Of a stretch of 64,000 nt of DNA, positions 3,249 through 50,118 are shown piece by piece. Position numbers and translations under genes: made by a program. Source of the DNA: a virus; the IMG/VR virus record IMGVR_UViG_3300034062_008235, positions 1 through 64,000 of that record, one strand, 5' to 3'. Positions within the stretch are counted from its first letter, which is position 1; each line of letters begins with the position of its first letter. The notes beneath the pieces were generated by a model. The model worked only from the letters and a program-made list of their open reading frames with translations, made no database searches and was not told the DNA's origin.

Positions 3249-3995
3249 TTATGTCTTCACCAAGCCAATCGTTCTTCCACGCAAGTCTCTCCATCCTACC
3301 ATGTTTGGTCCTTCAATATCAAGATTTTTCAATAATAAAAGCCCATTTTTTTCTATTTTGTCCATATAAAAAGAAACATCAACGGGCTTGCTCATTGTGT
3401 CTAGATATAAAATTTTATATTTTTTGTCTTTTTCTAATTGGTAATTTATATTCATATGTTTTCCAAATATATGAGAATTTTTAACAACAAAATCATCCAT
3501 GACTAATGCTTCTGCATTACTCTCTGTGAAAAATAAAGACCATATATAACTAAATGGCATAAAAGAATAGTAATCGCTTAATTTGTAAAATAACTTTGGT
3601 TTATTTTGTGAATAAAATTGCCAAGATTCATTAAACATTTTAAACAAATCGATCCTATTGTAATCTCTAAGAACAAAATTTTTATGTGTATCTGAATCAA
3701 ATTCCAATTTACATTCAGAAAACATACCTTTTAAAAGGATATGCTCGCAGTGTTTTTTAATATGAGTTTCAATTAATTGTAATTCTTGCAATACATTATC
3801 TGAAAAAAATATATTAACAAAGGTTTTATGGCTAAGAATGCTTCTAACAAAAAACGAATTAGCTATCGAATGATCGCAAAACAAATAATTTTTATAATTT
3901 TTATTTTTTAGGCTTTCATCAAATTTTTGATACCACTTAGTAAAAGGCAATCCCGGAGCATTTTGAAAAATAAATCTAAAATCTGGATAATTCAT
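3249..3995 (-). CDS. hypothetical protein, coupled downstream of spoVR
   Basis: 248 aa ORF with a 4-bp ATGA overlap with spoVR. Confidence 0.65.
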   Translation of the reverse strand: MNYPDFRFIFQNAPGLPFTKWYQKFDESLKNKNYKNYLFCDHSIANSFFVRSILSHKTFVNIFFSDNVLQELQLIETHIKKHCEHILLKGMFSECKLEFDSDTHKNFVLRDYNRIDLFKMFNESWQFYSQNKPKLFYKLSDYYSFMPFSYIWSLFFTESNAEALVMDDFVVKNSHIFGKHMNINYQLEKDKKYKILYLDTMSKPVDVSFYMDKIEKNGLLLLKNLDIEGPNMVGWRDLRGRTIGLVKT

Positions 3996-5587
3996 AGTTT
4001 ATTCAATTGCTCCCTAGTAATTGATTTTGGATCAGCTGAATCATAATCACCATTCATATCCTGACAATAATAAAAAACTTCGTCGCCATTATGGTTTTTA
4101 GTTTCTAAAACAACTGGCTGTCTCATTAAGGAACAAATAGACTTCATTACTTCGTATGCATAAGGTTTATAAAGTTCGATACCTTCCCACTTATGTTCCA
4201 TAAAAAACATATTACCTTTAAATCTTGGCTCAATCAATTTAATTGATGGTAATCCTCGATTAATATATTTCCTAAGCAACTCTTTCTTGATCTTCTTGTA
4301 ATCTCTACTTTCAATCTTAACTTCACCATTTGGATATCTTTTGTATTCAAAAAATTCGTTCTTTTCGCAAAAATCTTTAGTAAAAAATTCATTAATAAAT
4401 TGATAATCATCATAGTTTTTGCAAACTTCAAAAACTTTTTGCTTACCAAGACCAAGCTTTAGATCCCAATTTTCTTTCTCAAGAGGATCAGCACAGTTTT
4501 CATAATCTGTACCAAATCTACCCTTGTCCCATCTTTCCTCAATATCCATCAAAAGAGTGAATCCAAGTTTATATGGATTCATACTATACTTACCACCAAG
4601 AACACCAGCCTTATGAATTGAATATTCCACAATCCCAGCATCTTCTGTTTCTTGACCAAGGCTACAATAACCTTGTTTTGCAATAATGTGATAATCGCAA
4701 TAACTCGCAAGTCCTTCATTCAATGCTTTGGTTTTACCTTGTGGGCTAAAATAAATTGCTTCATTATAAAGAATTTCTGCAATATCTCGTTGCCAAGGTT
4801 TGAATGGCGCATTTTCTTTAATATAACCAAATATATCAGTCTCTGGTGTAATAAGAAGATTAAGATCTTGCATAATCTCACGTTCTTCAATTTTCTTGTT
4901 TTGAGTTTTTATAAAAGATTTAGTGTTAATCCAATCTTCCATGTAATCATTTTTTGTTTTAATCCTTCGTGGAAATACATAATCTTTATTATCTGTGATG
5001 ACAACGTCTTTTGCTTTTCTTTCTTTCCATATATTCATTGGATCGACAAGCGTTTCTATCCTAAATAAATGATCCATAAATTCAGTAACAGTCTCTCTTC
5101 CATATCGAGACATATACTTTCTTACATTTGATCCATTGTTGGCAAGCTCATTGTGAGCATTCGTATTAGTTCTAGAAAAATGAATGTTGTTTTTGAAAAA
5201 ATGACAATGCCCAAGAGCATGAGCAATAACTGTAATATTATCAAGTAAAGTGTTTGAATTTAGGCAATACAAGTAACATGGTGAAGAATTAATCACCATT
5301 TCATATATTCTATGATTGCCATATAGATATCCTCTTTGCATTTCCTCGTATTCTGCACCAAATTTCCAATGAGGAAACCTTACTGCAAAGCCGCCGTAGC
5401 TTGCAACTTCAGACATTTCATCATGAGAAAGCATTTGAACAATAGTAGGGTAAAAATCCAAACCAAAATCTTTACAAGCTTGAAAAATAGTGGGAATATG
5501 TTTTTGTAATTCTTCTGGAATGGGCACACCGGGAGTGGTTGCTGATCCAAACAAAACTGGTGAGCCGAATAAGAATTTATCTGACAT
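3992..5587 (-). CDS. spoVR: SpoVR/YcgB family protein
   Basis: FGLDFYP, RFPHWKFG, IYEMVINSSPCY, IAHALGHCHFFKNN, WQRDI, TKALNEGLASY and NPYKLG motifs. Confidence 0.95.
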   Translation of the reverse strand: MSDKFLFGSPVLFGSATTPGVPIPEELQKHIPTIFQACKDFGLDFYPTIVQMLSHDEMSEVASYGGFAVRFPHWKFGAEYEEMQRGYLYGNHRIYEMVINSSPCYLYCLNSNTLLDNITVIAHALGHCHFFKNNIHFSRTNTNAHNELANNGSNVRKYMSRYGRETVTEFMDHLFRIETLVDPMNIWKERKAKDVVITDNKDYVFPRRIKTKNDYMEDWINTKSFIKTQNKKIEEREIMQDLNLLITPETDIFGYIKENAPFKPWQRDIAEILYNEAIYFSPQGKTKALNEGLASYCDYHIIAKQGYCSLGQETEDAGIVEYSIHKAGVLGGKYSMNPYKLGFTLLMDIEERWDKGRFGTDYENCADPLEKENWDLKLGLGKQKVFEVCKNYDDYQFINEFFTKDFCEKNEFFEYKRYPNGEVKIESRDYKKIKKELLRKYINRGLPSIKLIEPRFKGNMFFMEHKWEGIELYKPYAYEVMKSICSLMRQPVVLETKNHNGDEVFYYCQDMNGDYDSADPKSITREQLNKL

Positions 5588-5589
5588 GA

Positions 5590-6777
5590 TTAAAACACCC
5601 GATTGGCACTTTGGAAAGGAGACCCTAAAATATCTTTAATAGCTTTCAGAATAGCTTCATTTCTTCTTTCTTCGCTATTGATAACATCAAATGGAATTTC
5701 TGCAACAACCACATTGTCTTCTAAATCGCCTTCTACAATAGCTTTCTCAACAGATTCTGCAACGCTGTGGTTGTAAGCATAAGCTCCTATTTGAGTTACA
5801 GCAACGAGATTTACAATATTTTGACCAAACTCTTTCTTTAACAGTGAAACAAAAACTTCATTATCATTGTCATAGTTTTCACCATCAGTAAAATAAAAGA
5901 AATAGATGTTCCAATTGTTTGGAGGAAATCTGTTTTCAAATTGTTTTGCGACTAGATCTAAAGCTGTAGAGCATGTGGTGCCACCGCCATTTCTTATCCT
6001 GTAGAAATCTTTGGCATCGACTTCATGAGCGGCAACATCGTGCCATACATAAAGTCTTTCTACTCGTTCATAAAAATTTCGAATATAAGTATCAATCCAA
6101 TATGCCATGTCAGAAACAACGGACACTTTCCTGTCGTCCATAGATCCACTAGCATCTCTGGCAAAGATAACCACAGCATTGCTGGACGGAAATTTAATTT
6201 CTTTGTATTGTCGATATCTTTTGTCAGAGTTAATTGGATTAATCATCTTGACTTTATCTTTAACACCGGGAATTTCATATAAATTGTTAATTTCTCCAGT
6301 TCCGCATAGACGCTTCATTGCTGTAAGCATTGTTCTGCGTGTATGACGAAGAGATTCTGGACCAACAAGAGAAATATTGTTGTATTTTATTTTTATGTCT
6401 TCAAGATTAGCTTGTTGTTTAGGTTTAAGGTCAGGGAGTTGCAATTCATCTTTCATAAAATGAAGGATGTCTTCCATGTCAATCTGAACGATAATGCCTT
6501 CACTTTCATCCTGCCCTGCACCGTTACCTTGTCCTTGACCTTTGTCTTTCCCTAAGACATCACCTTCTTGACCATCTCCACGTCCAACACCATTGGGATT
6601 TTTCCCGTGAAGAAAATGAGGAATGTCAATTGCAGGAATCTTTATAGAAACTTTGCCATTTTTACCACGGTGACGAAAAATTTCACCACTTTTGATGAAC
6701 TTCTTTAAGTTCTTTCTAATCCTACCGCTGACCACATCCCTAAAGTCTTTGTGGTCAGAATCAATCCTTCTGGGCAA
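5590..6777 (-). CDS. yeaH: YeaH/YhbH (DUF444) vWA-domain protein
   Basis: LQLPDLKPK, DKRYR, MIDAS-like DASGSM, GGTTCS, WNIYFFYFTDGEN; TTG start after AAGGAG. Confidence 0.93.
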   Translation of the reverse strand: MPRRIDSDHKDFRDVVSGRIRKNLKKFIKSGEIFRHRGKNGKVSIKIPAIDIPHFLHGKNPNGVGRGDGQEGDVLGKDKGQGQGNGAGQDESEGIIVQIDMEDILHFMKDELQLPDLKPKQQANLEDIKIKYNNISLVGPESLRHTRRTMLTAMKRLCGTGEINNLYEIPGVKDKVKMINPINSDKRYRQYKEIKFPSSNAVVIFARDASGSMDDRKVSVVSDMAYWIDTYIRNFYERVERLYVWHDVAAHEVDAKDFYRIRNGGGTTCSTALDLVAKQFENRFPPNNWNIYFFYFTDGENYDNDNEVFVSLLKKEFGQNIVNLVAVTQIGAYAYNHSVAESVEKAIVEGDLEDNVVVAEIPFDVINSEERRNEAILKAIKDILGSPFQSANRVF

Positions 6778-6793
6778 TTTTATTCTCCTTAAA

Positions 6794-8869
6794 TTAGAAC
6801 AGATCTTCTGCTAGATCGCCTCTTGCAAAAATACTGCTTACATAATCAAGCACATCTGTTGCGCTCTGCTCATTATAACCATATTTTTCAACAAGTCTTT
6901 GCTTAACCGCATCAATCTTCTTTTGAACATCTGGGTCAACTGTTGTCGCTCCAGATGAAAATGCACTTAGCTTAATGTGATCTTTTGTGTCTTCAAACAA
7001 TTTTGCTTCCAAAGCTTTCTTAAGGAGGGAATTACTATCCCACCTAAAAACCTTTTGTTTAATAGCAAGATCACCAATAAATGCCGCAATCATTCTTCGG
7101 AAGTCATCACAAGTAGATTCTGGAACATCAATCTTACTCTCAATAGATCGCATTAATTTTTCATCTGGACTTTCTTCTCGTCCAGTAATCTTATTGGTAA
7201 TTTTTGCTTTATTAATGTAAGCCATCAAATTGTCGATATAATTTGCACAAAGCCTGACAATTGCTTCTTCATCTCCAACAAGAGCCTTTTGAACTTCATT
7301 CTTAAGAATGTCATCAAGCTTCTTAGTTGCAAGAGTAACACAGTTTTGATACTTGCGCACCAAATCTTTATTAGAAATAAGAGAATGATTATCAAGTCCA
7401 CTCTTTAAGGCATTTAACACCATGAATGGATTGATGTAATCATGTCTGCTTGACAGCGTAGAAGAAATCTTGTCCTGCACATACCTTGCAGACATACCAG
7501 TCATGCCTTCATTCGGATTCTTATCTCTGAGTTCACGAACTCTATCAATTGTCCATCCGGGCAACATCTTTCCATCGTAAAGATCTGCCTTTTCAGTCAA
7601 AGTAATCTTATTGTCCTTATCATCTTCCAAACGTGTCAACACTGAAAACAATGCAGCAATCTGCAAAGTATGAGGAGCAATATGTTGCTTAATCTTATTC
7701 AAATTATAATCTTGTTCCAACACCTTAAGCTCCTTGCTCCATTCCAAGAGATAAGGAACTTCAATTCTTACAGTTCTGTCCTTTAAAGCTTCCATGTATT
7801 GGTTATTCTTTAACTTTTCGTACTCAGGAATGTTAGTGTGTCCAATGATAGCTTCGTCAATACTAATCTGAGAAAACTTCTTAGGCTTGATTGACTTCTC
7901 TTGTGATGCTCCGAGAAGATCATACAAGAAAGCTGTTTCAAGCTTTAACATTTCAATGAATTCAATAACACCACGATTAGCAACGCAGAATTCCCCATCA
8001 AAATTGAATGTTCTTGGATCAGAATCACTTCCAAATGTTGGCAATAAAGCGAAATTAATATCACCAGTAAGCTCTGTACTATCTTGGTTCTTTTCGTCTT
8101 TAGGTTGGAAAGAAGCAATGCCAACTCTATCTGCTTCAGAATATTGCTTTCGGACAACAACAATGTGGTTGTTTACAACTTTAACCCAATCTCCATTATA
8201 CATCTTGAGTAATTTGTCAAAGAAAAACTTACATTTTGGATTGATTTCACCTTCTACAGCAAGACTATAGAGAGTTGTTCTTTGTGATGGGTCAGCATTG
8301 CCGCTATGAATCTTATTTAGTTCATCAAGTACTTGCTTCCTTACTGTAAGGGGAAGAAGCTTCAAAGGATCTTCATTCATTGGGCAATCACAAACATCGC
8401 TTGTATAAAATCCATTCTGTCCTGTTGGGAGATTAACCCATTTATATGAATACCAAGCACCATTTTCAGTCTTGGAATAATCTTCCATGTTACGTTTAAT
8501 TAATCGACAAATAGTAGATTTAGCAGAACCTACAGGTCCGCATAGAAGAAGTATGCGTTTTTCTGGACCATAATGTCCGGCTGCGCCCTTGAAATGAGCA
8601 ACCAAAGACTCAAGCTGTTCTTCAATACCAAAAACTTTAATTTCTTCATGGTTCTCAAAAAACTTATAAGTTACGATCTTCTTGCGATACTTATCAATTT
8701 CTTCTGTTCCAAATGAAGTAATCATGTCGTAAATTCTTTGATGAGAATTACGAGCCAATTTTGGATTGTTATAACATCTGTTAATATATTCTTCAAAGCC
8801 AAGCTCTTCATGGAGCTTTTTGTAATCATCAAGATTATTGTTATTAGCGAACTGTGTTAAACTAACCAT
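6794..8869 (-). CDS. prkA: PrkA/YeaG AAA+ serine protein kinase
   Basis: Walker A GPVGSAKST, DEKNQDSTELTG, ANRGVIEFIEMLK, HTN, EALKDR, HIAPHTL and GMSARY motifs. Confidence 0.96.
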   Translation of the reverse strand: MVSLTQFANNNNLDDYKKLHEELGFEEYINRCYNNPKLARNSHQRIYDMITSFGTEEIDKYRKKIVTYKFFENHEEIKVFGIEEQLESLVAHFKGAAGHYGPEKRILLLCGPVGSAKSTICRLIKRNMEDYSKTENGAWYSYKWVNLPTGQNGFYTSDVCDCPMNEDPLKLLPLTVRKQVLDELNKIHSGNADPSQRTTLYSLAVEGEINPKCKFFFDKLLKMYNGDWVKVVNNHIVVVRKQYSEADRVGIASFQPKDEKNQDSTELTGDINFALLPTFGSDSDPRTFNFDGEFCVANRGVIEFIEMLKLETAFLYDLLGASQEKSIKPKKFSQISIDEAIIGHTNIPEYEKLKNNQYMEALKDRTVRIEVPYLLEWSKELKVLEQDYNLNKIKQHIAPHTLQIAALFSVLTRLEDDKDNKITLTEKADLYDGKMLPGWTIDRVRELRDKNPNEGMTGMSARYVQDKISSTLSSRHDYINPFMVLNALKSGLDNHSLISNKDLVRKYQNCVTLATKKLDDILKNEVQKALVGDEEAIVRLCANYIDNLMAYINKAKITNKITGREESPDEKLMRSIESKIDVPESTCDDFRRMIAAFIGDLAIKQKVFRWDSNSLLKKALEAKLFEDTKDHIKLSAFSSGATTVDPDVQKKIDAVKQRLVEKYGYNEQSATDVLDYVSSIFARGDLAEDLF

Positions 8870-8870
8870 A

Positions 8871-9197
8871 TTATTCTACCTCTCCAAAGTGGTTACCACT
8901 GGAAATATCATCAATACGCCTATATGGATTTTCTCCAGCGTTTGATGCTTTTTCTGCGTCTCTACGAAGATTCTGAGCTTGTTCTAGATTGTAACCTGCA
9001 CGATAATTAAAATTGTCAAATTTGCTCGTATCTTTCGGTTGAGCAAATTTGACATTGGCATCATTTAACAGTTTTTTCTTTTTCTTTGAATTACAATGTG
9101 GACATGAGACACTAGCATATCGACCTTTAGGATCGAACAATACTAGTGACTCATAATTTTTATTACAATTATTACACAAAAAATTATATGTAGGCAA
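8871..9197 (-). CDS. FmdB-like zinc-ribbon protein
   Basis: (M)PTYNFLCNNC...CPHCNS; likely TTG start at 9197. Confidence 0.75.
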   Translation of the reverse strand: MPTYNFLCNNCNKNYESLVLFDPKGRYASVSCPHCNSKKKKKLLNDANVKFAQPKDTSKFDNFNYRAGYNLEQAQNLRRDAEKASNAGENPYRRIDDISSGNHFGEVE

Positions 9198-9243: not shown

Positions 9244-9525
9244 TCATTCACTGATAATTTTTTTTATTTCTTCATATACAATTTTAACTTTTTTCATTCT
9301 AGAAGGAATAGACATGAATGACCACATCCATGAACCTTTACAAATTTTATATGCTTCTTCAATAAGCTTAGCTTGTATTTCTTGTTCTATGAGTATGTTT
9401 TGCTCCATCTGCATAGCAACCATCTGTGAGTCGATGAAGGCATTTTCCTTATCATTTTCATCTTCATCTTCATCCTCATCCTCGAACCCATCATCGCCAT
9501 AAGCAAAATCAAACCTGTTCTTCAT
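9244..9525 (-). CDS. acidic hypothetical protein
   Basis: Poly-ED tract; GGAGG SD upstream. Confidence 0.6.
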   Translation of the reverse strand: MKNRFDFAYGDDGFEDEDEDEDENDKENAFIDSQMVAMQMEQNILIEQEIQAKLIEEAYKICKGSWMWSFMSIPSRMKKVKIVYEEIKKIISE

Positions 9526-10759: not shown

Positions 10760-12130
10760 TCATCCATAAGCATGAATAATTTTATTAATAATATTAGTTG
10801 TTGATAGACCTTCAACTAAAGGAATGAATTCAATTCTATCAACAACATTGGCTCCAGCAATGTTTTTGCCTCGCCAATCCTCACCTTTGACCAAAACATT
10901 CGGCTTAATTGCCTCAATTACACTTTGAGGAAACTCTTCTTCCAAAACAACAATAAAATCAACACATTCTATTGCTTTCAACATTTCAATCCTTTGACCC
11001 AAAGGAATTATTGGTCTTTTTTCACCCTTCAATTTAGCTATACTTTCATCTGAATTAATGCCAACGCATAGCTTGTCACCAAAAGATTTTGCCTGTTTTA
11101 AAGATGATATATGACCGAAATGTGTAAGATCCATGCAACCATTAGTCCAAACTAAATTAAAATCCCTATTCCTCAACACGGCTGGATTAGTAATCAATTT
11201 GTCTTTAACAAAAAAATCTGATGGATTCAAAGGTTTATTATAACGATTAGCAACATATTTTGTTCCAGCTTCAAATGCAATAGCTATTGCTTCTTGCAAA
11301 TCAATTCCTGCGCTTAAAGCCATAGCCAAAAATGCTATATAAGCATCTCCAGCACCAGTCAGGTTTTCCGGTTTTATAGATTTTTTATCAGGAATTACAT
11401 AATATATTTTTTCATTATGATCAATTGCGCTTACACCCTCTCCTGCATTTGTAATCACAACATTATCACATCCCAGCAAAGCTTGAAGCCATTTTAACTG
11501 ATCTTCAACTTTTTCTTTATTAACAAATCTTTTTGCCTCAACAGAATTTGGCTTAAATAAATAACATCCTTCCCAAATATTAAGATTTTTCTTAGGATCA
11601 ACAAGTGATTTACTTTGCTTTAAATAATTCTTATGCCAATTTGTAGAAAATAAACCTTTATCATAATCAGAAAATATGTTAATGTCTGAATCAGGAATTT
11701 TTATGTCACTTAGATATCTTGATATATCAAATAAACCAAAATTAGGCTGTTCAATGTCCCACCTAGTTAATGGATGAAAGTCCTTATAAAATCTTTTTTT
11801 TATTGGATTTTTAACATCTTTTGAAACAATAGAATACTTTGTATCAATGCCATTTAGTTCACATATGTCTTGCGTTTCTGGACTAATAAGCGAAATCAAG
11901 TTTGTCTTAATGTTAAAATTACGGAATTGCATAACAACATTTGCGGCACCACCACACAATACTTTATGCGGTTTGTCTGTAACAGAACAATGAATGGGAA
12001 TGGGAAACTCTGGACTAATACGATCAACTTCTACTTGGTAATACTCATCAATTAAAACATCTCCAATAATATTTATTGTAATGTTTGATTTGTTTAATTT
12101 GTCAAAAAAACTTGAAAAAAAATTGCCCAT
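10760..12130 (-). CDS. hldE: bifunctional heptose-7-P kinase / heptose-1-P adenylyltransferase
   Basis: IGDVLIDEY..RISPEFPIP, GGAANV, SDYDKG, TGAGD; C-terminal TNGCMDLTHFGH, GINSD, KGEKRP, LVKGED and STTNII. Confidence 0.93.
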   Translation of the reverse strand: MGNFFSSFFDKLNKSNITINIIGDVLIDEYYQVEVDRISPEFPIPIHCSVTDKPHKVLCGGAANVVMQFRNFNIKTNLISLISPETQDICELNGIDTKYSIVSKDVKNPIKKRFYKDFHPLTRWDIEQPNFGLFDISRYLSDIKIPDSDINIFSDYDKGLFSTNWHKNYLKQSKSLVDPKKNLNIWEGCYLFKPNSVEAKRFVNKEKVEDQLKWLQALLGCDNVVITNAGEGVSAIDHNEKIYYVIPDKKSIKPENLTGAGDAYIAFLAMALSAGIDLQEAIAIAFEAGTKYVANRYNKPLNPSDFFVKDKLITNPAVLRNRDFNLVWTNGCMDLTHFGHISSLKQAKSFGDKLCVGINSDESIAKLKGEKRPIIPLGQRIEMLKAIECVDFIVVLEEEFPQSVIEAIKPNVLVKGEDWRGKNIAGANVVDRIEFIPLVEGLSTTNIINKIIHAYG

Positions 12131-14267: not shown

Positions 14268-15074
14268 ATGAGTTTTCCATCAATATATTTCGACGGCTAT
14301 TACCGTATCCTTTCCCATACCCCAAGCCCAGAAAACGATACTCCAAAATTTGGAGATTCATTCAGGAGCTTTGATGCTGCTGTTCTAAAAGAAATTGATA
14401 TGTCTTGGCAAGGGCATAAAATCTTAAACCAAAAATCAACTAACAGTTGTGTTGGTCATGCATCTACTGCTGGAATGGAGATTTTGCAAAAGCAACGTCA
14501 AAATGTTCAAAAAAGCTTTAATCCATTCTTTCACTATGCGTTAATTAATGGTGGACAAGATGGTGGGGCTTATATTTCAGATAGCCTTAACATGCTTAGA
14601 AAGTATGGAATCTGTGAAACAAGTGCGTTTCCACATGACCGTGTTTATTACAAGAGCAGTTTAACCAAAGCTGCTTATGATAATGCTGCTAGATTTAAGC
14701 TAGGATATGCTTATCAATGTAACACATTCGAAGAAGTTTGCCAAGCAATCAGCCTTGGTTTTGTTGTAAACATCGGCATCCTTGTTGGATCTAACTTTGC
14801 CAAAGTCGATTCAGAAGGCATTGCTCCACTTCCAAATGGTGGTGGTGGCGGACACTCAATGCTTGCCTGCGGAATAAAGCAACACAGCAAATATGGCTGG
14901 TTGGTAAAGCTCCAAAATAGTTGGGGTTCAAACTTTGGATTAGGTGGCTATTGCTATGTTAGAAAAGAACATTTTACAAGCCGAAGCAAGCTTGATTGTT
15001 TTGCGTTCCAAGGTGTTGTAGAAGATCATCTAGATCAAGATAAGACAGACGATGTACCTGTTGTTAAAGTATAA
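14268..15074 (+). CDS. papain-like C1 cysteine peptidase
   Basis: NQ..SCVGH (catalytic Cys), GHSM (His), QNSWG..FGLGGY. Confidence 0.9.
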   Translation: MSFPSIYFDGYYRILSHTPSPENDTPKFGDSFRSFDAAVLKEIDMSWQGHKILNQKSTNSCVGHASTAGMEILQKQRQNVQKSFNPFFHYALINGGQDGGAYISDSLNMLRKYGICETSAFPHDRVYYKSSLTKAAYDNAARFKLGYAYQCNTFEEVCQAISLGFVVNIGILVGSNFAKVDSEGIAPLPNGGGGGHSMLACGIKQHSKYGWLVKLQNSWGSNFGLGGYCYVRKEHFTSRSKLDCFAFQGVVEDHLDQDKTDDVPVVKV

Positions 15075-33355: not shown

Positions 33356-34666
33356 TCAAACTTCAGAATAATTTTTCAAAAATGCTAAATTTTCGCCAAA
33401 CTTAGTATCAACAATAAATCTTAAGGGCTTATAGTCAGAAAATTCTTTCTGCAAAGTATCTTTAATTTGCAATACAGATAATTTTAATTTTTCCTTTTTA
33501 ACAGCAAAAACAAAACAATCGTGAATTGAAAACAATAATCTAAAATCTTTAGTTTCAATTGATTTTATTTCATTCATCTTCATAAAACAAAATACTGCTG
33601 CTGGTGAATGTACAGAAAAATTCATGGCTTTATATCCCTCATCTGCAATAAAATTTTTCTTTCTTTTGAAGTAATCAAGACAATAGCCAAAATTTATTGC
33701 TTGAGCAGACTGCTGTGAAACATAATCAAACGCTTTGCTAAATAAAGTCTTTATTTTATTCAAATAAGTCTTGGCTTCCAAAATAGAACAACCTAAAGAT
33801 TCTGATAACTTAGCTGGAGAAATACCATAAATACTTGGTAAAAATATCTTCTTACCTAAATCTTTATAGTTTTTATTTTCAAAATTATTTAAATCAAGAA
33901 CATATTGAGCAATTTGTTCATACGGATGACATGTGTTATACAATAATGTATTTAAGTTAGCATCATTACTCAAAAATGCCAAAACATATAACTCCAATGC
34001 CTTAAAGTCAAACGATACAAATATTTCATCTTCTGATAAAACAAAATTTTTCTTAATTTCATAAGTCAAAGTATGTGGATTAAAATTTCTATTAGAAAAA
34101 ACTTTAGAATTCAATCTTCCATTTTCTTGCAATCTTGATGAATAATAAGGATAAACAAATGTAGCTTCACTATCCAATATGATAGCTTGATTTTCCATGT
34201 GTGGAATTGTTTCACATATTAATTTTTGAAAAACATTTTTATATATTTCAAAACTATCATGCTTAATAAATTTCAAAAATATAGAAACTATGTCAGTCAT
34301 TTTTTCAAAAGAACAACTTATATCATTGTAATCACAATACCAATTTAAATCAAAAAATACTTTAAAATCAATTTGTTTAGTACAATTTTGTTTCAAACAA
34401 AAAGAATGAAATAACTTAGAATCTAAACAAATTATCGGTCGATTATATTCTCTTAAACAATTATTCACATGGTGTACAAACGAACATGTATTGTTTTGAT
34501 GTAATTTTATTTCAAATTTAGATCCTCTTGGTCCTTCAAGTTTTATATGAAGTAAAAGATTTTGTTTATCAGTTAAATCGGGTTGATTTAAAATTTGCAA
34601 ATAAATAAATGGCTCGACACAAAATGTGTCGAAAATGTTTTCAAAAGTGGTTTTGTCAATACTCAC
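33356..34666 (-). CDS. divergent family A DNA polymerase domain protein
   Basis: NGRLNS, motif A SFDFKALELY, motif B GKKIFLPSIYG, motif C SIHDC. Confidence 0.8.
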   Translation of the reverse strand: MSIDKTTFENIFDTFCVEPFIYLQILNQPDLTDKQNLLLHIKLEGPRGSKFEIKLHQNNTCSFVHHVNNCLREYNRPIICLDSKLFHSFCLKQNCTKQIDFKVFFDLNWYCDYNDISCSFEKMTDIVSIFLKFIKHDSFEIYKNVFQKLICETIPHMENQAIILDSEATFVYPYYSSRLQENGRLNSKVFSNRNFNPHTLTYEIKKNFVLSEDEIFVSFDFKALELYVLAFLSNDANLNTLLYNTCHPYEQIAQYVLDLNNFENKNYKDLGKKIFLPSIYGISPAKLSESLGCSILEAKTYLNKIKTLFSKAFDYVSQQSAQAINFGYCLDYFKRKKNFIADEGYKAMNFSVHSPAAVFCFMKMNEIKSIETKDFRLLFSIHDCFVFAVKKEKLKLSVLQIKDTLQKEFSDYKPLRFIVDTKFGENLAFLKNYSEV

Positions 34667-34720: not shown

Positions 34721-34735
34721 TGGCACACTTTTTGC
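34721..34735 (+). promoter_or_regulatory. sigma54 -24/-12 motif
   Basis: TGGCACACTTTTTGC = GG-N10-GC consensus. Confidence 0.65.
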
Positions 34736-34937
34736 TTCGCGCGTTTATACTAAGTATTTATATTCATCTTCAATTACTTCGTAATTGAAGATGCTTTAGT
34801 TTAAGTGGTACTAATTTACTCTTCGCTTCGCTCAGAGTAAATTAGCACCACTTAATAAAATATGATTTATTAAATAATCAAAATTAGAACTAATACTTAT
34901 TAAGTTAATTATATTAATACTTAGTATTAATTAATAC

Positions 34938-34952
34938 GCAAAAATCGTGCCA
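34938..34952 (-). promoter_or_regulatory. sigma54 -24/-12 motif (convergent copy)
   Basis: Minus strand TGGCACGATTTTTGC = GG-N10-GC consensus. Confidence 0.65.
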
Positions 34953-47480: not shown

Positions 47481-48728
47481 TTATTCAAAATCATCAAGAT
47501 TATAAATAAATGATTGTTTAGGAATATGTCTTTTATTATCTTTGGATAAAAACCAATGCCATCTTGTTGGATGTTCTGGAGTTACTTTGGTGCCCATTCC
47601 ATCAGTAATAATAAATACTGCTGATGGATATTTTTTGTGTTTTAATTTTTCTTTTTGAATACAATCCTCTATAATGCTAAAACAAGTACCTCCACCACCA
47701 TAAATTTTACCAGAAGACAAATCAGTTTCTTCAACTTTTGTATCGAAGCAAAATAATCTGATATTAAACTTTTCTTTTGGCAAACTATTAGCAGCTGTGA
47801 AAAATCGTTCTGCCAAATTTATACAACTTCCTGACGTATCTAAAAAGAAATAAACATCTGTTTTATTTTTACTAAGATGGAAACATTCTATTTCAGCGTT
47901 TGAAGGCAAGATAAGACCGTTGTAAAACCCACTCATTCTTCTAGATTTTCTAATCCATTGTTCTTTTTCAATGCTGGAAAAGCGTAATGTCTCAAATTGC
48001 CACTTCTTTATGATTGATTCCCATTTTTTCTTTCTCGATTTTTTAACTTTATTAATTGTCATCCAAGAGCCTTTATCAACTCCTGCATTCTTAATATTAT
48101 TGATAGCATCGCTTAATTGCTGTTTTTCAGAAGCATCCAATTGATCAATAGTTTGTTTGACAGCTTCTTCAAGCTGTTCATCTGTTAACCCTGAATGGTC
48201 ATCAACAAGTTTGCCATTACTGTCTCCATTGCCATTGCCACCTCCATTGTTTTCTTTTTGTTTTTCAATTTCATTGTAGTAAAATTCAGTGGATTCATCA
48301 TCTGGATAAGGAAACCCTAAATACTTTTTATCTTTAAAAACAGTATCAACCCAACAATACTCATTGTTTGAGTCAACATCTTCTTTGATAAAACCAAAAT
48401 CTCTCACAAGAGAATGATTTACGACAACATCCATGGCTATATTGGATATCTTATTGTCAACTCCTTCAAGAAATCTTGACCCATGTTGAAGCACAATATG
48501 CAGTGCTTCGTGGCATATAACAAACATTTTTTTATAATCATCACATTTTTCCCAAAACTTTTCATTGAAAAGAAAGTTAATAAACTTTCCTTCTTTATCA
48601 AATTGAACTGCTGCTGTAGGAATCTTATCAGTGAAAAAGGGCTTGCCCATTTCTACAATTTTGTAGAAAAGACTATGATGGCAAGCAAGCTTGTTTTTAA
48701 GCCTTTCCCAATCAGAATTAATATCCAT
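47481..48728 (-). CDS. metallopeptidase + vWA domain protein (DUF2201-like)
   Basis: IPTAAV, CHEALH, NIAMD..VN, LDTSGS, FDT, GGGT and ITDG motifs. Confidence 0.88.
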   Translation of the reverse strand: MDINSDWERLKNKLACHHSLFYKIVEMGKPFFTDKIPTAAVQFDKEGKFINFLFNEKFWEKCDDYKKMFVICHEALHIVLQHGSRFLEGVDNKISNIAMDVVVNHSLVRDFGFIKEDVDSNNEYCWVDTVFKDKKYLGFPYPDDESTEFYYNEIEKQKENNGGGNGNGDSNGKLVDDHSGLTDEQLEEAVKQTIDQLDASEKQQLSDAINNIKNAGVDKGSWMTINKVKKSRKKKWESIIKKWQFETLRFSSIEKEQWIRKSRRMSGFYNGLILPSNAEIECFHLSKNKTDVYFFLDTSGSCINLAERFFTAANSLPKEKFNIRLFCFDTKVEETDLSSGKIYGGGGTCFSIIEDCIQKEKLKHKKYPSAVFIITDGMGTKVTPEHPTRWHWFLSKDNKRHIPKQSFIYNLDDFE

Positions 48729-50118
48729 TTTGAATTCCTTTCATTACGTTGATGATCCCCAAATTTTCACATTTATTTTTGAAAACTAAGTTCTGAGTAA
48801 CCTTGACAGCAAACATTTCATCCAGTTTTACATAACATTTATTCCATACTTTTACCAATGAATCCAAATTATGCTGCTTTATAGTTGCTTCCCATTTTTC
48901 AATCACAAAGTCCACAATAAATGCTATCGTCTTTTTACAAACAACAATATCTGGATCATCTGGTAAATTTTGCAAAATAATTTTAATTCTATCGTTTTTG
49001 TTACAATTTTCTATTTGATTTATGTAATCAGCGTTTGACAAAGATTCAGCAATATCATTAGTAGCAGTTTTGCTTATACTTAAATCTTCTACACTATTAT
49101 TAGCGTAGTACGATCTTATTTTCATCAATGCCTTGGGATTAGAACCAGCAGTTAATATTTGTGTGATTACATTCTTAAACTCTTGATTACTATCTTTATT
49201 TTTTAAGATATAATCAGATATATTCAATTTTTCATCTGCAATTAATAAAGATAATTTTTCTCTTTTCAAAAGAGGAATAAAAAATTCCATGTAATTTTCA
49301 TTAAGATTAATTATTTTTATTGCTGAAGCATAATTGTTCTCAATATTTAAAAACAATTTTGCTTCTTTTATATTTTTCGTTTCGTATAATTTAGATAATT
49401 TCTTATCAATTGGTCCATTACTAATATCTTGTCTAAGTTTACCAATGTTACTATCTTTTGGTAGAATATCTTCTAGAGGAATACCTTTACTCATAAATTG
49501 CAAAGCATAATCAAGTCTTCTAGGAGATATCTGTTTTTTAATATTTTCTGGTAAATCATTCCACCAATTAATACTAGCAGCAGCTATATCGTTTCCATAC
49601 TTATTGCTAAAGTATTCTGTATCACAAGTATATGGAACAACAATTTGATTGGCATGAAAACGATCCTTATGTGCTGGATCTAACCTTTCAACATCATAAG
49701 TTCCTTGTTCATCTTCTGGATTGATAGCTGCCCAAACTACTTTCAGGTTAGGAAACTTTCTGCCATTGATTGATTTGAATTGACATAATTCAAGCAAAGC
49801 ATTTCTAATCTTACTGGGAGATCTGTTGAATTCATCAACAAAAATAGCTTGTATTTTACCTTCATCAACAAATGCTTTTGGAGGTATAATTTCAATACAT
49901 TTTTTGCCGTTATATTCAACTTCTTTGGGAATTCCGATAAAATCAACCCATGGATCAAGCGTACTTCCAGAAAAGTAAAGCCATGATTCATTTAAAACTA
50001 AGCCTTTTTCTTCAAAAGCTTGTTTTACAATAGATGTTTTACCAACACCATGTTCTCCAGTAAGAAGAACATTCATTTCACAGTCGTAGTACTTCTTTAA
50101 CCTTTCAACCAAATTCAT
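48718..50118 (-). CDS. MoxR-like AAA+ ATPase
   Basis: GEHGVGKT, FVDEFNR, AAINP and LDPAHKDRF motifs. Confidence 0.88.
   Translation of the reverse strand: MNLVERLKKYYDCEMNVLLTGEHGVGKTSIVKQAFEEKGLVLNESWLYFSGSTLDPWVDFIGIPKEVEYNGKKCIEIIPPKAFVDEGKIQAIFVDEFNRSPSKIRNALLELCQFKSINGRKFPNLKVVWAAINPEDEQGTYDVERLDPAHKDRFHANQIVVPYTCDTEYFSNKYGNDIAAASINWWNDLPENIKKQISPRRLDYALQFMSKGIPLEDILPKDSNIGKLRQDISNGPIDKKLSKLYETKNIKEAKLFLNIENNYASAIKIINLNENYMEFFIPLLKREKLSLLIADEKLNISDYILKNKDSNQEFKNVITQILTAGSNPKALMKIRSYYANNSVEDLSISKTATNDIAESLSNADYINQIENCNKNDRIKIILQNLPDDPDIVVCKKTIAFIVDFVIEKWEATIKQHNLDSLVKVWNKCYVKLDEMFAVKVTQNLVFKNKCENLGIINVMKGIQNGY

Follow-up and report, generated by a model that had tools for sequence, protein, structure and literature searches.

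Few bacterial modules of poorly understood mechanism are as widespread as that formed by the genes prkA (yeaG), yeaH (yhbH) and spoVR (ycgB). In Escherichia coli, yeaGH and ycgB occupy two separate operons, which are controlled by RpoS/NtrC, and in Bacillus PrkA-YhbH and SpoVR are part of a sporulation regulon. Here we analyze a phage-borne cassette that contains all three genes and that is located on a 64,000-bp stretch of DNA (hereafter the window) corresponding to positions 1-64,000 of the 91,057-bp IMG/VR record IMGVR_UViG_3300034062_008235. As of October 2026, the AAA+ member of the module has been linked to global starvation proteolysis in E. coli: deletion of yeaG abolishes the starvation-induced bulk degradation of cytoplasmic proteins, which is largely non-specific, and the name spdA has been proposed for the gene (PMC13684143). 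In the case of Bacillus subtilis PrkA, kinase activity was not found, and the protein degraded casein slowly in an ATP-dependent manner that required the Walker A lysine K108 (PMC9512850). Highly purified PrkA of B. anthracis, on the other hand, belongs to AAA+ clade III, possesses a pore loop, showed no protease activity and alters sporulation gene transcription; its authors argued that the earlier protease activity may stem from a contaminant (PMC13001217). The protease activity of Bacillus PrkA is thus disputed (PMC9512850 versus PMC13001217). Furthermore, yeaG, yeaH and ycgB have been shown to be mutual best cofitness partners in six bacteria (10.1101/072470).

The trio has also been annotated on phages. 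Phage phiYS40 (2006) contains YS40_056 (DUF444), YS40_057 (SpoVR) and YS40_059 ("serine kinase"), in the order DUF444-SpoVR-hypothetical-PrkA, which is unlike the order in the window. Adjacent PrkA, DUF444 and SpoVR genes are also carried by the Thermus phages TMA and phiLo, in which PrkA is likewise annotated as "serine kinase", and by the Ralstonia jumbo phage RsoM2USA, as ORF28-30 (PMC8504454). Moreover, PHROGs holds "unknown function" families for PrkA, YeaH and SpoVR. The novelty implied by an original prediction on this locus, which was made from its letters alone, was therefore overstated: at the level of the trio, the window adds one more case to a set that has been annotated since 2006. 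Neither PrkA nor SpoVR is mentioned in the main text of Al-Shayeb et al. 2020. The copies of these cultured phages are only 25-31% identical to the window proteins and look like independent acquisitions of other subtypes. The four-gene form described below, in which a zinc-ribbon gene precedes the trio, is a huge-phage-specific version of the known bacterial module.

The cellular operons that most resemble the cassette are of a "long type" and are found in Myxococcota, Bdellovibrionota, Chloroflexota, Planctomycetota, Calditrichota and other phyla. They share with the window the gene order, a PrkA of about 690 aa, and the invariant Walker A, metal-ion-dependent adhesion site (MIDAS) and H-x3-H/NEG residues that are described below. 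Their PrkA proteins, the closest cellular ones, are 51-55% identical to that of the window, and their YeaH and SpoVR proteins 32-41%. They differ in that none of 75 loci has the FmdB-type zinc-ribbon gene upstream, and in that the phage copies form a separate clade on a long stem. The E. coli proteins YeaG (SpdA), YeaH and YcgB belong to the same three Pfam families and yet are distant. Thus, the window PrkA scores 201.3 bits against the E. coli YeaG equivalog NCBIfam NF011999, far below its cut-off of 576, and is of a different, "long" subtype, and SpoVR scores 158 against an NCBIfam equivalog cut-off of 679. YeaH, in turn, reaches 201.7 where the spore_yhbH equivalog requires 467.95. Whereas the E. 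coli genes are divided over two operons, those of the window are united in a single phage cassette that has no sigma-54 motif in its vicinity. The B. subtilis and B. anthracis proteins are also of the same families, and share the AAA+ N-terminal domain, whose Walker A motif B. subtilis PrkA requires for function (PMC9512850).

It is well supported that the cassette of the window is real and intact, that it is inherited across a phage lineage under strong purifying selection, and that it is important to the phage. The five co-oriented genes of the original prediction are all present as intact open reading frames (ORFs) on the minus strand, with the spacing it described (Table 1). According to the ORF coordinates, the zinc-ribbon gene is separated from prkA by 1 nt, prkA from yeaH by 16 nt and yeaH from spoVR by 2 nt, and a 4-nt ATGA overlap couples spoVR to a downstream gene encoding a 248-aa protein. 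The phage context was also recognized correctly: the phage-type genes in the window include those for a tail sheath, a T4 gp15-like tail sheath stabiliser, a UvsX-like recombinase, a gp32-like single-stranded DNA-binding protein, DnaB, SbcC, ribonucleotide reductase (RNR), ThyX and a family A polymerase. CheckV estimated the completeness of the record at 16%, which for 91,057 bp implies a full genome of about 0.5-0.6 Mb.

A scan of IMG/VR for close relatives of PrkA yielded at least 137 viral stretches, on contigs of up to 572 kb and with PrkA identities of 59-97%, and 80 of these were fetched and compared. Searches by tblastn with the window proteins showed that the order prkA-yeaH-spoVR is maintained in nearly all of the 80 viral loci that are long enough to judge, and that the zinc-ribbon gene lies immediately upstream of prkA in most of them. 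The same three-gene order is also present in most of the cellular loci that hold all three genes. The nearest GenBank record, the 595-kb uncultured phage LR756511, has a zinc-ribbon/PrkA/YeaH/SpoVR order identical to that of the window and a PrkA that is 62.6% identical. The ratios of nonsynonymous to synonymous substitution rates (dN/dS) were calculated pairwise by the Nei-Gojobori method, and the closest relative, locus L005, lies at a dS of 0.6-0.8; the values for the five genes are included in Table 1.

A FastTree phylogeny was built from 144 PrkA sequences. In it, the 63 sequences from phages cluster in a single group (support 99, stem 0.39) that excludes all 79 cellular ones, and in the trees of YeaH and SpoVR, too, a single branch divides the phage copies from the cellular copies, with a support of 100 each. 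The phage/cellular split was retained when 50 rows were analyzed by IQ-TREE under a site-heterogeneous model. The phage clade that the original prediction proposed to look for is thus present for each of the three proteins. The donor phylum, which it also sought, cannot be named: when the very distant outgroups phiYS40 and RsoM2USA were included in the IQ-TREE analysis, the branch that separates the phages received a support of only 39, too weak to place the root or the donor. Our reading of these sequence comparisons is that the trio probably entered the phage lineage by a single transfer and was then passed on vertically as a unit. Within the phage clade we also encountered a PrkA, 65% identical to that of the window, on the 546-kb contig CALFYV010000090.1 (L085) of a "Bacteriovoracaceae" metagenome-assembled genome. 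This contig carries a phage-type cassette, complete with the zinc-ribbon gene and an HldE-like gene. It probably represents a huge phage that was binned into the bacterial genome; alternatively, it may be a weak hint at the host.

These results bear on the possibility that the cassette was created by misassembly, or that it is a host operon that was captured recently and is now decaying without function. Besides the general risk attached to metagenomic sequences, this explanation can call on the G+C content, which is 0.37 at 6-8 kb versus 0.27-0.33 in the flanks. However, dozens of viral contigs, independent of one another and derived from different samples, contain the cassette together with its flanking phage genes. 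Moreover, the phage copies cluster in a clade of their own, the closest cellular PrkA is only 51-55% identical, and the dN/dS of PrkA, YeaH and SpoVR is about 0.03. Conservation in relatives, clade and constraint together show that the cassette is neither a chimera nor a decaying passenger. Chimeric assembly and relaxed selection, the two dangers that the original prediction had foreseen, are therefore already refuted, and we assign this explanation a negligible probability.

The proteins encoded by prkA and yeaH have the hallmarks of their families. PrkA matches, in N-to-C order, the Pfam domains AAA_PrkA (3.1e-77, 260.5 bits) and the PrkA C-terminal domain (7.4e-73, 245.8 bits), for a cut-off of 25. 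Its Walker A motif, G111-P-V-G-S-A-K117-S118-T119, is intact; all of its residues except A116 are kept in at least 97% of 144 homologues, as are 160 residues of the protein overall. The PDB entries 9XIP, 9XIQ and 9XIR, described as a "Serine protein kinase" of 692 aa, match residues 10-683 of PrkA (E 7.8e-205 for 9xip); we found no paper on these entries in the literature. The general Pfam scan reported no Lon protease domain for PrkA, a scan that included no Lon-directed test. Two PrkA relatives, P0007 and P0118, contain intein/LAGLIDADG domains. YeaH matches Pfam DUF444 (8.5e-63, 213.3 bits, cut-off 27) and contains a MIDAS motif of the von Willebrand factor A (vWA) type, made up of D208-x-S210-x-S212, T267 and D298; at least 97% of 106 homologues retain these residues. 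When the PDB was searched with the YeaH and SpoVR sequences, either single or as a profile, nothing meaningful was obtained.

SpoVR, for which the Pfam match is also unambiguous (1.4e-100, 337.4 bits, cut-off 27), was modelled by AlphaFold2 from a 57-sequence alignment with a mean predicted local distance difference test score (pLDDT) of 80.0 and a predicted template modelling score of 0.76. An exhaustive comparison of this model by VIA-align returned, in its top 50 rows, nearly exclusively zincin metallohydrolases, with Z scores of 5.8-10.7, a root-mean-square deviation (rmsd) of mostly 3-6 Å and 111-224 aligned residues. They include M1 aminopeptidases, leukotriene A4 hydrolase, thermolysin/LasB (M4), M30 lugdulysin, M32, M3, M9 collagenases, DUF885 and YbeY. 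A Foldseek search of BFVD with the same model gave one match, a viral protein of 617 aa. The residues H73, E96, H123, H127, E291 and N337-P-Y339 are invariant, also in phiYS40 and RsoM2USA, and several of them belong to what looks like a metal site: H123-A-L-G-H127, H/D129, E96 and N290-E291-G292-x-A294. The last of these elements resembles the "NEGFA" metal-ligand motif of M1 enzymes, and E291 is a candidate for the third metal ligand, which in gluzincins is a Glu on a downstream helix. SpoVR thus models as a zincin-like predicted metal hydrolase that lacks the canonical catalytic Glu.

Insertions in related SpoVR genes provide further information on these motifs. In-frame, stop-free inserts of 0.7-3 kb, which we read as inteins, are located exactly at positions 100|101 and 294|295 in copies from phages (L027-L029, L032-L033, L035, L045-L046, L050, L052-L053, L058-L059, L068 and L073) and from Chloroflexota (L104 and L121); SpoVR of the window has no insert. 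Both sites adjoin invariant motifs. Inteins are usually located in functional cores, and the positions of the inserts therefore lend independent support to the importance of these motifs.

The first gene of the cassette encodes a zinc-ribbon protein of the FmdB family. Its longest frame opens at a GTG at 9251; read from the TTG at 9197, the protein begins with MPTYNF. From the latter start it scores 35.4 bits against NCBIfam TIGR02605 (cut-off 31.3), and from the longer GTG start it remains under the threshold of Pfam Zn_ribbon_8 (30.1 versus 34.4). MPTYNF is the canonical start of FmdB proteins, and the start is conserved in relatives, which use TTG or ATG preceded by a GGAG/AGGG ribosome-binding site; position 9197, as originally predicted, is therefore the right start. 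The protein consists of two CxxC pairs, a Lys-rich linker and a C-terminal tail, IDDISSGxxFGEV(K/E). In an alignment of 33 relatives, C8, C11, C32 and C35 are invariant, and the tail and the full length are conserved. A profile search found 318 clusters of the protein, and the matches listed are 108-137 aa long, except for one of 173 aa.

Two lines of evidence tie this gene to the phage form of the trio. On the one hand, an FmdB-type start with two CxxC pairs is encoded on the same strand within 1.5 kb upstream of PrkA at 66 of 79 phage loci and at 0 of 75 cellular loci; nor was a zinc-ribbon gene found within 6 kb of PrkA in phiYS40 or RsoM2USA. On the other hand, the linkage also holds in the reverse direction: a back-translated pattern for the tail IDDISSGxxFGEV, run on 2.9 million viral contigs, gave 22 matches, and PrkA follows directly in all 20 that could be assessed. 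As judged from these sequence patterns, the zinc-ribbon gene is a phage-lineage-specific fourth component of the cassette. As separate observations, the relatives L013, L015 and L019 have a G+C-rich hairpin followed by a T run, resembling a terminator, about 20-60 nt upstream of the zinc-ribbon start, which suggests that in these phages the four genes are transcribed as a unit of their own; the window has no conserved hairpin of this type. The window does have an 8-bp hairpin immediately before the start of the zinc-ribbon gene, but this was dropped as a candidate element, as it is not conserved in the closest relative. In L039 and L040, the tblastn match to the zinc-ribbon protein spans two in-frame TGA codons, which could reflect extension in a wrong frame or a phage that reads TGA as sense.

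The gene downstream of spoVR is of a different nature. It was originally called an orphan coupled to spoVR by ATGA; the coupling is as described, and the gene is better viewed as a member of a narrow family than as a strict singleton, with nine representatives among 1.84 billion proteins and homologues (30-68% identity) only in the closest relatives of the window, L005-L012. It has no match in Pfam, PHROG or NCBIfam, and no usable one in the ESM Atlas. The dN/dS of 0.10-0.20 shows that the ORF is a real gene. The model of the protein has a pLDDT of 57.7, and its C-terminal half is better modelled and predicted to be Rossmann-like. Two candidate identities were rejected: an S-adenosylmethionine-dependent methyltransferase, for which there were only tied matches to Rossmann/methyltransferase folds (Z 6.4-7.4) without a GxGxG motif, and a diverged ClpP, to which hhalign assigned a probability of 0.2%. 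Across 73 related loci, the slot after spoVR is occupied by at least 21 unrelated families. The commonest of these, present at 20 of the 73 loci, is a family of ClpP-like proteases in which Ser, His and Asp residues are conserved (L021-L023, L039-L040, L042, L045-L046, L053-L055, L057, L060-L063, L070-L071, L080 and L084); no ClpP was found in the 91-kb record of the window. We therefore regard the 248-aa gene as an accessory that is specific to its lineage and occupies a variable slot.

Together, the literature and the fold result for SpoVR make a three-part AAA+/vWA/zincin-like machine for ATP-dependent protein turnover, acting on host proteins, the most economical model for the cassette, and the absence of protease activity of its own in pure B. 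anthracis PrkA (PMC13001217) leaves room for a partner hydrolase. As the best explanation of the whole we adopt it tentatively. According to this model, very large phages would have acquired the module once and passed it on vertically as a unit, adding the zinc ribbon as its first gene. PrkA would assemble into an AAA+ ring by which proteins are gripped and unfolded, its vWA/MIDAS adaptor would be YeaH, and SpoVR, as a zincin-like metal hydrolase, would supply or control cleavage. The trio could thereby carry out ATP-dependent turnover or remodelling of cytoplasmic proteins, like YeaG (SpdA) of E. coli under starvation, so that during a long infection host protein would be recycled to amino acids and energy, or particular host proteins would be removed. 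The zinc ribbon may be an activator or adaptor peculiar to the phage, through which the machine would become independent of the starvation signals of the host, and the 248-aa protein may be a lineage-specific accessory. By way of analogy only, FtsH-type proteases combine an AAA+ ATPase with a zincin-fold hydrolase, as we propose here, and MoxR systems combine an AAA+ ATPase with a vWA/MIDAS partner. No homology is claimed, and the window differs from both in that it encodes three separate proteins and a SpoVR without the Glu of HExxH. Of the functions considered in the original prediction, protein remodelling fits best, in view of the proteolysis dependent on YeaG (PMC13684143), the zincin-like SpoVR and the ClpP-like neighbours, while control of dormancy or sporulation found no direct support. 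A stronger version of the model is conceivable but doubtful. In this version, phages of 0.3-0.6 Mb would carry a bulk protein-recycling machine, with PrkA as unfoldase, YeaH as adaptor, SpoVR as non-canonical zincin-like hydrolase and the phage-only zinc ribbon as activator, that degrades the host proteome in a starvation-type, autophagy-like manner on the schedule of the phage. If true, bulk protein recycling would feed a long and costly infection, and would be the protein counterpart of the phage nucleases that recycle host DNA.

Several observations weigh against the turnover machine. The function of the phage copies is deduced from homologues and from fold, and the study on E. coli yeaG left YeaH and YcgB out of its tests (PMC13684143). 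The match of SpoVR to the zincin fold is moderate (Z 8-10.7, rmsd 4-5 Å), and a Foldseek search of the PDB with the SpoVR model gave no match at E <= 0.001. In addition, the residue after H123 is Ala in 49 of 49 phage copies and Val in 39 of 39 cellular copies, and never Glu. Without the Glu of HExxH, it is doubtful that SpoVR catalyses in the canonical zincin manner, and a peptidase activity should not be taken for granted; SpoVR may instead be a pseudo-enzyme, or its target may be a bond other than a peptide bond.

PrkA/YeaG was originally viewed as a Ser kinase acting in nitrogen starvation and sporulation, and this view leads to the alternative that the phage takes over host signalling: a kinase- or pseudokinase-type switch would act on the starvation, stationary-phase or dormancy programme of the host, without bulk proteolysis, and would keep a nutrient-limited host productive or block its entry into dormancy. 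The fitness phenotypes of the trio vary by species, which has been read as indicating a signalling pathway (10.1101/072470), and the effect of B. anthracis PrkA on sporulation gene transcription, with no detectable protease activity (PMC13001217), is in line with such a role. However, the kinase activity could not be found for B. subtilis PrkA (PMC9512850), the E. coli phenotype is the loss of a broad, largely non-specific degradation (PMC13684143), and a hydrolytic function is suggested both by the zincin-like SpoVR and by the ClpP-like neighbours. We therefore consider a takeover of signalling unlikely, and the prolonged productivity or blocked dormancy that would follow from it equally so.

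Two further alternatives retain a proteolytic role for the trio and differ in the proteins on which it would act. The machine could serve the phage itself, as an unfoldase or in the quality control and maturation of the proteome and virion of a 0.5-Mb phage. That the window holds other protease-type genes (a MoxR-like AAA_3 gene with a DUF2201_N partner, and a papain-like gene) is in keeping with this idea, which we nevertheless regard as distinctly unlikely: the cassette is surrounded by metabolic and replication genes (HldE-like, ThyX, RNR and polymerase) rather than by structural ones, and the cellular homologues act on the general cytoplasmic proteome (PMC13684143). Alternatively, the module might selectively remove host immunity or stress proteins, with the downstream gene and the zinc ribbon setting the specificity. 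The turnover of families in the slot after spoVR is a pattern typical of arms-race accessories, and the zinc-ribbon partner is phage-specific. On the other hand, the core trio is among the most constrained genes of the region (dN/dS 0.03) and shows no sign of diversifying selection, and no defence or anti-defence family turned up in an annotation made without PADLOC. A role in counter-defence is thus improbable in our view.

For reconstitution, the cassette is a convenient form of the system, as it is both compact and self-contained. The constrained trio and its zinc ribbon suggest the testable idea that big phages may actively recycle host protein. In addition, the family-wide signature H-[A/V]-x-x-H ... 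NEGxA and the intein insertion points of SpoVR name concrete residues to mutate.

Table 1. Features of the window referred to in the text. Strands are given relative to the window; dN/dS values are pairwise against the closest relative, L005; ranges are in brackets.
Feature	Position	Strand	Details	dN/dS
FmdB-family zinc-ribbon gene, first gene of the cassette	8871-9197	-	108 aa, TTG start	0.14 (0.08-0.17)
prkA, PrkA/YeaG-family AAA+ ATPase, "long" subtype	6794-8869	-	691 aa	0.026
yeaH/yhbH (DUF444)	5590-6777	-	395 aa, TTG start	0.031
spoVR/ycgB-family gene	3992-5587	-	531 aa, without intein	0.031
Lineage-restricted orphan gene	3249-3995	-	248 aa	0.10 (0.10-0.20)
HldE-like bifunctional heptose kinase/adenylyltransferase gene	10760-12130	-	NCBIfam NF008454, 6.4e-71, under equivalog cut-off	
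Papain-family (Peptidase_C1) cysteine protease-like gene	14268-15074	+	E 3.2e-06	
Family A polymerase gene	33356-34666	-		
Sigma-54-type motif, exact	34721-34736	+	TGGCAC-N5-TTGCT	
Sigma-54-type motif, one mismatch	34937-34952	-		
Next gene after the sigma-54-type motifs	from 35162	+		
DUF2201_N "putative metallopeptidase" domain protein gene	47481-48728	-		
MoxR-like AAA_3 ATPase gene	48718-50118	-		

The original prediction had also proposed a connection between the cassette and sigma-54 motifs elsewhere in the window. The number of such motifs in the window was not reached by any shuffle of its sequence, and the exact motif and the one-mismatch copy face each other on opposite strands; both lie in the 496 bp that separate the family A polymerase gene from the plus-strand gene that follows (Table 1). 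However, they are located about 25 kb from the cassette, in another intergenic region, and face other genes. No match with fewer than two mismatches was found within or upstream of the cassette, and between 3 and 12.2 kb there are only two-mismatch matches, all inside genes. The proposed connection is thus not borne out.

As for the remaining genes, no tRNA genes were found in the 64-kb window. The HldE-like gene is also present in many related phage contigs, 2-4 kb upstream of the cassette. A papain-family gene lies on the plus strand, and a second pair of the AAA+/metallopeptidase type is encoded on the minus strand at 47481-50118, where the gene for the MoxR-like ATPase adjoins that for the DUF2201_N protein.

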